From assembly GCF_024502345.1 (NCBI RefSeq), contig NZ_JALDNN010000001.1: 64,000 bases of DNA, one strand, 5' to 3'. This DNA comes from Escherichia coli. Lineage in GTDB: Bacteria; Pseudomonadota; Gammaproteobacteria; Enterobacterales; Enterobacteriaceae. Made by a program: the position numbers. Within the stretch, counting starts at the first letter, position 1. Each line of letters opens with the position of its first letter. Shown here in pieces: positions 61,201 to 64,000 of the stretch.

Positions 61201-64000
61201 CACTCCCACAACCGGATGAATGCTTAAGCACCGCTGGCCGGGATCGGCATCTGTGATTTGCGGCTCATCAGAATAAATACCGCCAGGCCTGCCAGCAAAA
61301 TGCCCGGCGCAGAAGCCGCCATCACCCCTACCCTTCCGGTACCGAGCGCTAACATTTTCCCTGCCAGCAGCGGACCGCTCATCGCCCCCAGACGCCCGAC
61401 TGCGACGGCGGTTCCCACGCCTGTGGCGCGGATCTGCGTGCTGTAAAACAGCGGCGCCAGCGCATACAACACACTTTGCCCGCCGGTGGCGAACATCCCC
61501 GCCACAAATCCCGCCATTAGCATGCCGCTCAATGACGACACCGTACCCAGCGCCAGCAGTGAAGCCAACATCCCGGTGTAGATCAGCAGCGACATCACCA
61601 CCGGGCGCAGTTTATCCATTAACGCCCCGAGAATTAACGTGCCGCTGGCCGCGCCAATTTGCAGAGCAAACATTACGCCTGCCGCCTGCGATGGCCGAAA
61701 GCCCTGCTCCACCAGCAGCATCGGCAGCCAGTTGATCAGCATATACACCACCAGCAGGGTGAAGAAATAGCACAACCACAGCAGCAGCGTGGCACTCGCC
61801 GTCGCTGGCGCAAACAGGGCGCGCAACGGTGCGGCGGCCACCTGCGTTTGTTGGGTATAAACCTGAGATTCCGGCAGCCAGCGCATCAACAGCGGCACCA
61901 GCAGCAGCGGGATCACCCCGCCTACCCAGAACACCGTTTGCCAGGCGGAGGCCAGGCCGCTAAACCCGAGCGCTGCCGCCAGCGCCGCGCCAATCGGCAC
62001 ACCGCAGTACATCAGGCTCACCGCCGTACCGCGAAAACGCGGGCCCGCCGCCTCGGAAGTCAGCGCGATCAGATTCGGCAACGCCGCGCCCAGCCCGACG
62101 CCGGTCATCAGACGGGCAAACACCAGCGATGAGAAATCCCAGGAAATCGCCGTCGCCAGCGAGAACAGGCCGAACAGCGCCACAGAGGCAATGAGAATAC
62201 GCTTGCGGCCATAGCGGTCGGCCAGCATGCCGCCCACCAGCGCGCCGGGCAGCAGCCCGAGAATGCCCGCACTGAAGATCCAGCCCATCTGCATTTTATC
62301 CAGCGCAAACGCGTGGGCGATACCGACGGCAGCGATACCGGCGGCCTGTAAATCCAGCCCTTCCATCAGGGCAACTAAAAAGCAAAGCCCAACGGTCAAC
62401 GTCAGGCGGTAAGATGCGGAGGTACGGGTCGTCATAAGATGTCCCTCTGAGGTCACGATGCAGGTGAATCGCGGCTGATACGTTGCCAGCCGCGTAATCA
62501 TTTTTTATTTGCGGTTGCGCAGGTCCAGCGCTACGTCGACGATCATATCTTCCTGGCCGCCCACCATCCGACGTTTGCCCAGTTCCACCAGAATATCTAC
62601 TGCGCTCAGGCCATAACGTGCTGCCGCCACTTCGCAATGACGCAGAAAACTGGAGTACACCCCGGCATAGCCCAGCGCCAGCGTTTCACGATCCACCCGC
62701 ACCGGGCGGTCTTGTAGTGGACGCACTAAATCGTCGGCGGCGTCCATCAGTGCGTAGAGATCGGTTCCGTGCTGCCAACCAAGCTTATCCGCAGCGGCGA
62801 TAAATACCTCCAATGGTGCGTTGCCCGCGCCTGCGCCCATCCCTGCCAGGCTGGCGTCGACACGGTCACACCCCTCTTCTACTGCGGCAATCGAGTTCGC
62901 CACCCCAAGACTCAGGTTGTGATGCGCATGCATTCCGGTTTCTGTTTCAGGCTTCAGCACCGCTTTCAGTGCGCGGAAGCGGGCGCGAATATCGCTCATG
63001 TTCATTGCGCCGCCGGAATCGACCACATAAATACAGGTCGCGCCGTAGTTTTCCATCAGCTTCGCCTGCTGTGCCAGGTTCTCCGGTGTGGTCATATGGC
63101 TCATCATCAGAAAACCGACGGTATCCATGCCAAGCTCACGCGCATACTGAATATGCTGGGCCGACACATCCGCTTCAGTGCAGTGGGTCGCCACGCGCAC
63201 TACCCGTGCGCCGGCCTGATATGCATTTTTCAGGTCATGAATAGTGCCGATACCCGGCAGCAACAGCGTGGCAATTTTGGCATGCTTCACCACGTCCGCC
63301 GCCGCTTCAATCCACTCCAGGTCGCTGTGTGCACCAAAGCCGTAGTTGAAGCTGGAACCTTGTAAACCGTCGCCGTGGGCCACTTCAATAGAATCAACCC
63401 GTGCGTCGTCCAGCGCTTTGGCTATCTGGCGCACATTCTCCAGCGAATATTGATGACGAATAGCGTGCATACCGTCGCGCAGGGTCACGTCAGAGATATA
63501 GAGTTTTTTACCGTTCATGCTGCTTCTCCTGCCTGACGAGCGAGGGACTGCGCCATCTTCTCAGCGGTCGCCAGCGCGCTGGAGGTCATAATGTCGAGGT
63601 TGCCCGCGTAGGCGGGTAAATAGTGCGCCGCGCCTTCCACTTCCAGATACACCGCGGTTTTCAGCCCAGAGAACTGGCCGATACCCGGCAGATTCACCGG
63701 TTTATCTTCCGGGATGACTTCAAACTGGACACGCTGTTTCAGGCGATAGCCCGGCACGTAGGCCTGTACCGCCACCGCCATCTCATTAATCGACGCTTCA
63801 ACTTCAACCTCAGAGGCCGCTTCGCTCAGCACATACACCGTGTCACGCATCATCAGCGGCGGTTCGGCCGGGTTAAGGACAATAATGGCTTTGCCTTTTG
63901 CCGCGCCGCCGACCACTTCAATCGCCTTCGAGGTAGTTTCGGTAAACTCGTCGATATTGGCGCGGGTACCCGGCCCCGCCGATTTACTGGCGATCGAGGC

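Follow-up and report, generated by a model that had tools for sequence, protein, structure and literature searches.

A second mhp gene set beside mmuPM in an Escherichia coli contig is very probably a fragment of a Citrobacter chromosome

A 64,000-nucleotide (nt) stretch of Escherichia coli contig NZ_JALDNN010000001.1 (RefSeq assembly GCF_024502345.1), here called the window, carries the native mhpABCDFE-mhpT cluster and ends in a second, diverged mhpT-mhpE-mhpF' set (copy 2) that directly adjoins mmuP on the minus strand. Copy 2, mmuP, mmuM and a truncated afuC form one block, which is very probably a horizontally acquired fragment of a Citrobacter freundii-complex chromosome, with Citrobacter portucalensis as the closest sequenced representative. 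The block is a xenolog, since it is near-identical to and collinear with Citrobacter, whose native gene order it has. Its identity to Citrobacter, synteny, boundaries and distribution were read directly from genome comparisons.

A second mhpF-mhpE-mhpT set had been named in an initial annotation, and all three minus-strand open reading frames (ORFs) were read by translation at 61224-64000. They are Citrobacter-type mhpT2 (3-hydroxyphenylpropionate transporter, 403 aa, 61224-62435), Citrobacter-type mhpE2 (4-hydroxy-2-oxovalerate aldolase, 337 aa, 62505-63518) and the C-terminal 161 codons of mhpF2 (acetaldehyde dehydrogenase, 63515-64000), which is cut by the window end. The mhpT2-mmuP intergenic region (60950-61223, minus strand) is native Citrobacter sequence crossed by a collinear high-scoring segment pair (HSP). 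It is followed on the minus strand by mmuP (S-methylmethionine permease, 59546-60949, RefSeq annotation and comparison) and mmuM (homocysteine S-methyltransferase, 58627-59559, RefSeq annotation of identical sequence), both Citrobacter-type and the K-12 allele. On the plus strand, afuC' (fbpC; sugar-phosphate ABC transporter ATPase, 57865-58518) is Citrobacter-type and retains the C-terminal 217 codons, its 5′ end having been lost to the insertion sequence (IS) IS1. RefSeq annotates it in strain G3/10 as a partial TOBE-domain protein. The 768-bp IS1, delimited by its terminal inverted repeats at 57097-57864, is the left boundary of the Citrobacter-derived block.

Relatives of MhpT2 were identified in a scan of one genome per bacterial species. 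Amino acid identity is 99% to C. portucalensis, 98% to C. werkmanii, 97% to C. braakii and C. youngae, 95% to C. gillenii, with 95–98% as the range over the nine Citrobacter representatives other than C. portucalensis. Escherichia MhpT proteins are only 85–90% identical to MhpT2, so the two copies are not closest relatives and intragenomic paralogy was rejected. At the nucleotide level, window positions ~57864-64000 (afuC'-mmuM-mmuP-mhpT-mhpE-mhpF') are collinear with the C. portucalensis A60 chromosome at 98.5–98.6% identity. Against C. braakii and C. youngae they give one collinear alignment at 91.7–91.8% that runs over the afuC/mmuM, mmuP/mhpT and mhpT/mhpE junctions. The longer form of the block in E. 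coli C (18114-29505) aligns over 11.4 kb as one HSP with C. braakii and with C. youngae (92%), and its identity to C. portucalensis is 98.3–98.9%. Identity of the copy-2 block drops in Citrobacter species order (98, 92, 88 and 83–87%). Single genes agree with C. portucalensis at 98.6% (afuC', strain A60), 98.8% (mmuM) and 98.9% (mhpE2) of nucleotides, and the MmuP protein is 100% identical with a synonymous divergence (dS) of 0.055. Across the block, dS to C. portucalensis is only 0.03–0.055, which points to a recent transfer from this species or a close relative.

The gene order is that of Citrobacter. The native C. braakii arrangement runs from a divergent mhpR through mhpABCDFE, mhpT, mmuP and mmuM, and continues with convergent afuC-afuB-afuA and one uhpC-like and one uhpB-like gene. 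Neighbouring mhpT and mmuM were found in all 13 Citrobacter loci, with mmuP between them in nine and afuC seen in 12; the locus comparison found this adjacency in no genus other than Citrobacter. The native regions of C. portucalensis A60, C. braakii ATCC 51113 and C. youngae CCUG 30791 are collinear over the whole block with like junctions, whereas the E. coli fragment is cut by IS elements at both ends and sits in a genomic island. Strain A60 also carries ~2.9 kb between afuC and mmuM (13827-16692 of the extracted stretch) that is absent in the E. coli copy, C. braakii and C. youngae; the actual donor was therefore without this insertion.

The fragment measures ~11.4 kb where least truncated and is the positional counterpart of E. 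coli afuABC-(frmRAB-yaiL)-mhpT...mhpA-mhpR, with mmuPM filling the Citrobacter slot between mhpT and afuC. It would have left Citrobacter by conjugation or transduction and then been captured by IS elements, a direction and mechanism proposed from sequence comparison. In E. coli it would lie in an IS-rich CP4-6-type island at thrW; it is bounded by IS1 at the afuB/afuC end and, in the relatives inspected, by a truncated IS911-like element at the mhpA end.

Native mhpABCDFE-mhpT (copy 1, 29130-37090, minus strand, 98.4% identical to K-12 mhpA-mhpT) served as comparator. BLASTN of copy 2 against the rest of the window matched it at 29157-32315, with 83.2% ungapped identity for mhpE/F and 80.0% for mhpT. 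Codon-level comparison of copy 2 with copy 1 gave, for mhpT, 88.5% protein and 79.4% nucleotide identity, dS 1.07 and a ratio of nonsynonymous to synonymous divergence (dN/dS) of 0.070; for mhpE, 97.0%, 83.9%, 1.29 and 0.014; and for the C-terminal part of mhpF, 92.5%, 81.6%, 1.35 and 0.029. The initial annotation was accurate in putting the aldolase proteins at about 97% identity. Its estimate of roughly 10% nucleotide divergence was too low, the measured values being 16–21% with dS 1.07–1.35. Near-identity of the copies in nucleotides, named there as what would overturn its view, was not found; the alignment gives only 79–84% identity with dN/dS 0.01–0.07. The mhpE/F copies have no segment above 89% identity and a longest identical run of 29 nt. 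The afuC' fragment differs from native afuC (24813-25859) to a similar degree (83.3% nucleotide and 92.2% amino acid identity, dS 1.16), and divergence from the native block is uniform over mhpT, mhpE, mhpF and afuC (dS 1.07–1.35). GC content at third codon positions (GC3) in copy 2 versus the native copy is 0.755 versus 0.592 for mhpT and 0.667 versus 0.549 for mhpF, with a small difference for mhpE (0.627 versus 0.618).

An ancient duplication within Escherichia would have produced afu...mhp paralogues that diverged in place, with copy 2 later lost from most strains, K-12 included. Such a history would accommodate the arrangement common to both blocks (mhp...T, a cassette and a convergent afuC) and a divergence that is high and mainly synonymous. 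It is nevertheless extremely unlikely: copy 2 matches the C. portucalensis chromosome at 98.5%, its identity falls with Citrobacter species order, and its gene order is native to Citrobacter. It also occurs in ~2% of complete E. coli genomes, is near-identical among them and IS-bounded, and has the distinct GC3 noted above for mhpT2. The initial annotation had offered either an ancient duplication or a horizontally acquired allele; the horizontal half stands and the duplication half does not. The shared layout it reported holds as far as a convergent afuC in each block, with the copy-2 afuC present here only as a 3′ fragment. The layout is common to both because the blocks are positional orthologues from Escherichia and Citrobacter, here carried together.

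Copy 2 resembles the K-12 mhpR-mhpABCDFE-mhpT cluster for 3-hydroxyphenylpropionate meta-cleavage in its genes, their order, protein identity (88–97%) and a hairpin before mhpT. It differs as a Citrobacter allele with 79–84% nucleotide identity, without a bacterial interspersed mosaic element (BIME) array, and with mmuPM downstream instead of yaiL-frmBAR; in relatives it is also without mhpR, the promoter and the mhpA 5′ end. The BIME array of copy 1, already reported in the initial annotation, was read directly from the sequence. It fills the 478-nt mhpE-mhpT spacer at ~30425-30780 with ~3.5 alternating inverted repetitive extragenic palindromic (REP) units of the GCCGGATGCGGCGTGAACGCCTTATCCGGCCTAC type, in tandem with a period of ~117 nt. 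Neither copy 2 nor Citrobacter has the array.

The mmuP-mhpT2-mhpE2-mhpF2 arrangement was found in 105 of 5426 complete E. coli genomes at ≥99.9% identity, so that the mmuP-mhpT adjacency, for which the initial annotation had proposed a search, occurs in these genomes and on Citrobacter chromosomes. This distribution bears on whether the contig is chimeric, or contaminated with Citrobacter DNA joined at mmuP/mhpT. The window does stop inside the cluster, and its exact backbone is in no complete genome. However, the mmuP-mhpT junction is native to Citrobacter and crossed by single HSPs, the complete genome of G3/10 has IS1-afuC'-mmuMP-mhpTEF at 99.99% identity, the adjacency recurs in complete genomes that include E. 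coli C and NCTC strains, and K-12 has the first 3.3 kb. An assembly artefact thus has almost negligible probability.

The stretch past the window end was inspected in five relatives (G3/10, E. coli C, 027_SK3, H1 and 504239). The gene order is A-B-C-D-F-E-T, with T, E and F in the window and D, C, B and A' in relatives of identical sequence. In all five, copy 2 runs on through mhpD, mhpC and mhpB to a 5′-truncated mhpA'. The mhpABCD continuation raised in the initial annotation therefore exists for mhpD-C-B and fails at mhpA, of which the first 94 codons are gone. In G3/10, E. coli C, H1 and 504239, mhpA' is cut at the same point and retains the last 1383 of 1665 nt; in 027_SK3 it is annotated ~36 nt shorter at the 5′ end (1347 nt), and afuC' is truncated there too. 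The completeness that had been implied for copy 2 was not borne out, since every relative inspected is without mhpR, the promoter and the first 94 mhpA codons. A search of the 5426 complete E. coli genomes found neither a full Citrobacter-type mhpA nor a Citrobacter-type mhpR, and the mhp2 part is on none of the PLSDB plasmids.

A truncated IS911-like fragment of the IS3 family abuts mhpA' in all five relatives. An IS30, a group II intron or an IS110, varying by strain, is inserted into the IS3 debris, and an IS256 fragment is next. The locus of heat resistance (LHR) lies past ~5 kb of IS debris from mhpA' in each of the four relatives with a long enough stretch: G3/10 (33877-45001 of the extracted stretch), E. 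coli C (34975-45001), 027_SK3 (28053-33001) and H1 (30215-33001). The stretch of 504239 ends in IS debris short of the LHR position. LHR genes include hsp20, clpK, ftsH-like, yfdX1/2, hdeD-GI, trx-GI, kefB-GI and others. The LHR, or transmissible locus of stress tolerance (tLST), island is thus physically linked to the mhp block in relatives, whereas the mhp block is outside the LHR gene set and the LHR is outside the window. Among the papers that could be searched, none was found to connect LHR, tLST or clpK with mhp, mmuP, afuC or thrW. In E. coli C the whole assembly lies within a CP4-6-type island beside thrW. The thrW setting is seen in E. coli C and K-12; the window strain has prpR' on the left, attached through IS1, and its right flank falls past 64000.

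In the window, IS1 joins the first 135 nt of prpR (prpR', 56962-57096) to afuC'. Its terminal inverted repeats occupy 57097-57119 and 57842-57864; K-12 IS1B/IS1C match it at 99.7% identity. No 9-bp target duplication is present, the flanking 9-mers being different. This absence, together with the joining of prpR' to afuC', is the signature of an IS1-mediated deletion and implies the probable removal of most of prpR, yahO, yahN, yahM and the rest of the CP4-6-side DNA. The exact prpR'-IS1-afuC' junction was found in none of the 5426 complete E. coli genomes, the best backbone matches being ~98% in several pieces. From mmuP to native mhpT is ~100 kb in K-12 (K-12 coordinates) and 31 kb in the window strain, close enough for one window to hold both clusters. 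The IS1-mediated deletion between prpR and afuC very probably brought the foreign and native mhp clusters to this distance.

K-12 MG1655 matches window positions 57864-61125 at 99.94% and then enters IS5A, with 98 bp still to go to the mhpT2 stop. The K-12 remnant, in the CP4-6 cryptic prophage, is IS1(B)-afuB'-afuC-mmuM-mmuP-IS5A, in agreement with the initial annotation that K-12 retains only an mmuPM-afuC remnant. The CP4-6 segment is therefore the same DNA as in the window, with the mhp part lost or never received. According to published work, mmuPM occurs within E. coli only in K-12-type strains, as part of CP4-6, and other species have it without a phage association (PMC3228920). The IS1-afuB'-afuC-mmuM-mmuP-IS5 module is also on ~395 PLSDB plasmids at ≥99% identity, with the IS5 junction at the same base (61125). 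They comprise E. coli IncF and other plasmids, for example IncFIA/FIB plasmid pS65EC (NZ_CP036244.1, 5609-10310). Since the plasmid remnant ends at the K-12 base, this Citrobacter DNA also circulates as a plasmid module. A literature search found no paper naming Citrobacter as the source of mmuPM or reporting mhp2-LHR linkage.

The K-12 form did not arise from the long form by deletion alone. In E. coli C, IS911 fragment 2-eyeA-ykfC (a truncated group II intron reverse transcriptase) abuts mhpA' (29504-31698 of the extracted stretch). The same DNA in K-12 (9761-11955 of its extracted stretch) is inverted relative to mmuP, with IS5A between. The inverted segment requires at least one IS-mediated inversion, plus deletion, in the ancestry of K-12.

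Copy 2 is most likely a promoterless passenger, with mmuPM as the functional cargo. Because the mhpA end is cut, it is without MhpR, the MhpR/CRP-dependent promoter and the FAD-binding N-terminus of MhpA, and a lack of expression is suggested by these missing parts. Its ORFs would still be open only owing to recent transfer. The short derivative in K-12 and on plasmids retained mmuPM with its own promoter in the kept intergenic DNA and dropped mhp. In H1, copy-2 mhpD (19463-20272 of the stretch) is a pseudogene with an internal stop; like the shortened afuC' and mhpA' of 027_SK3, it is a sign of decay of the foreign block.

Several points weigh against a silent, IS-cut fragment of this history. 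All copy-2 ORFs within the window are intact. Values of dN/dS between copy 2 and Citrobacter are low (0–0.28), at only 6–21 substitutions per gene; as a test of relaxed selection the comparison was dropped, such numbers being too few to inform. An mhpT2 promoter of its own, or outward promoters borne by IS elements, could drive copy 2. With the inversion in K-12, any order of events between the long form and the K-12 form is tentative. For the window strain, a truncated mhpA' and a link to the LHR are predicted by extrapolation from relatives, because the window covers nothing past 64000 and its exact backbone is in no complete genome.

Alternatively, mhpBCDFE-mhpT might be expressed from an IS or internal promoter as an auxiliary pathway kept by selection, and could supply extra meta-cleavage capacity or a second transporter alongside native MhpA and MhpR. 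Intact mhpT2 and mhpE2 in the window, intact mhpB-mhpT in most relatives inspected, the low dN/dS, retention across diverse hosts and a conversion tract between the copies in strain 504239 would fit such a role. This is very unlikely: in E. coli genomes the Citrobacter-type copy never comes with mhpR, the Pa promoter or the MhpA N-terminus, H1 has mhpD2 as a pseudogene, and K-12 and the ~395 plasmids shed mhp while retaining mmuPM. At ~1.5% divergence from the donor, open ORFs are expected even without selection.

In strain 504239 (NZ_CP025859.1), native mhpA nt 741–1152 (~412 nt, 76 consecutive informative sites) is identical to its own copy-2 mhpA'. The tract lies at 10745-11156 in native mhpA of the extracted stretches and was compared with copy-2 mhpA' at 5180-6562. 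From the alignment, this tract clearly indicates that two copies with ~80% identity underwent homeologous gene conversion. Copy 1 of the window has no tract converted from copy 2, with no run of ≥3 informative sites among 1276.

The initial annotation had the mhpE stop and mhpT start of copy 2 only 3 nt apart, which was a longest-ORF artefact. The conserved mhpT2 start, used by RefSeq, is preceded by an AGAGG Shine-Dalgarno sequence and lies 69 nt past the mhpE2 stop. It is conserved across genera; C. gillenii, Klebsiella and others have no upstream ATG. The 69-nt spacer contains a conserved stem-loop, CGCGGCTG-GCAACGTAT-CAGCCGCG (62470-62494, minus strand), with a counterpart in copy 1 at 30373-30397. 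The hairpin (CGCGGCTG-GCAAYGTAT-CAGCCGCG) has an 8-bp stem and a 9-nt loop, and is just past mhpE, ~45 nt before the mhpT start. It is found in both copies and in 16 other enterobacterial species (18 sequences compared), and its stem has changed in a compensatory way in Pluralibacter, Prodigiosinella and Enterobacter. It is not followed by a T-run, an Rfam scan of 55000-64000 gave no match for the hairpin or elsewhere, and the mhpR-mhpA operator has no convincing match to the TTCACCTGC/hairpin motif. The hairpin might serve intercistronic processing or stability, or else bind a protein. To judge by its position, the Escherichia BIME array is inserted between the mhpE stop and the hairpin.

In its widest form, the proposal would make copy 2 more than inert cargo: a reservoir of homeologous sequence for recombination into native mhp, as seen in the 504239 tract, and perhaps an expressed unit. 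This reading is unlikely. If true, transcription driven by IS-borne or internal promoters would provide LHR-carrying lineages from wastewater and food with additional or changed phenylpropanoid catabolism. The data also suggest that K-12 mmuPM is Citrobacter chromosomal DNA and that the hairpin may be an undescribed intercistronic regulatory element.

In the native region, afuC/fbpC (24813-25859, plus strand, annotation of the 99.1% identical strain GF3-3) ends the uhp-like/afuABC cluster and is convergent with mhpT1 across frmRAB-yaiL. The order in the window is response regulator, kinase, uhpC-like, afuA, afuB, afuC/fbpC, frmRAB, then convergent yaiL, mhpT...mhpA, mhpR and lacI. Positions 19000-25859, between tauA and frmR, hold the full set of response regulator, MASE1 kinase, uhpC-like gene and afuABC (sugar-phosphate uptake); K-12 genes differ here.

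Copy 2 adds a new, well-documented example to a familiar class, xenologous pieces of chromosome lodged in IS-rich islands. As a horizontal transfer it is rather ordinary, and it leaves the understanding of the mhp pathway and of horizontal transfer unchanged. The puzzle of two alleles of one block becomes a sister-genus fragment that landed ~100 kb from its own positional orthologue, followed by an IS1 deletion. The mhp block is a marker physically linked to the LHR in the E. coli lineages inspected, and the tract in 504239 provides a natural example of gene conversion between 80% identical copies. For K-12 mmuP, mmuM and afuC and their copies on IncF plasmids, the donor can be assigned to the C. 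freundii complex near C. portucalensis.

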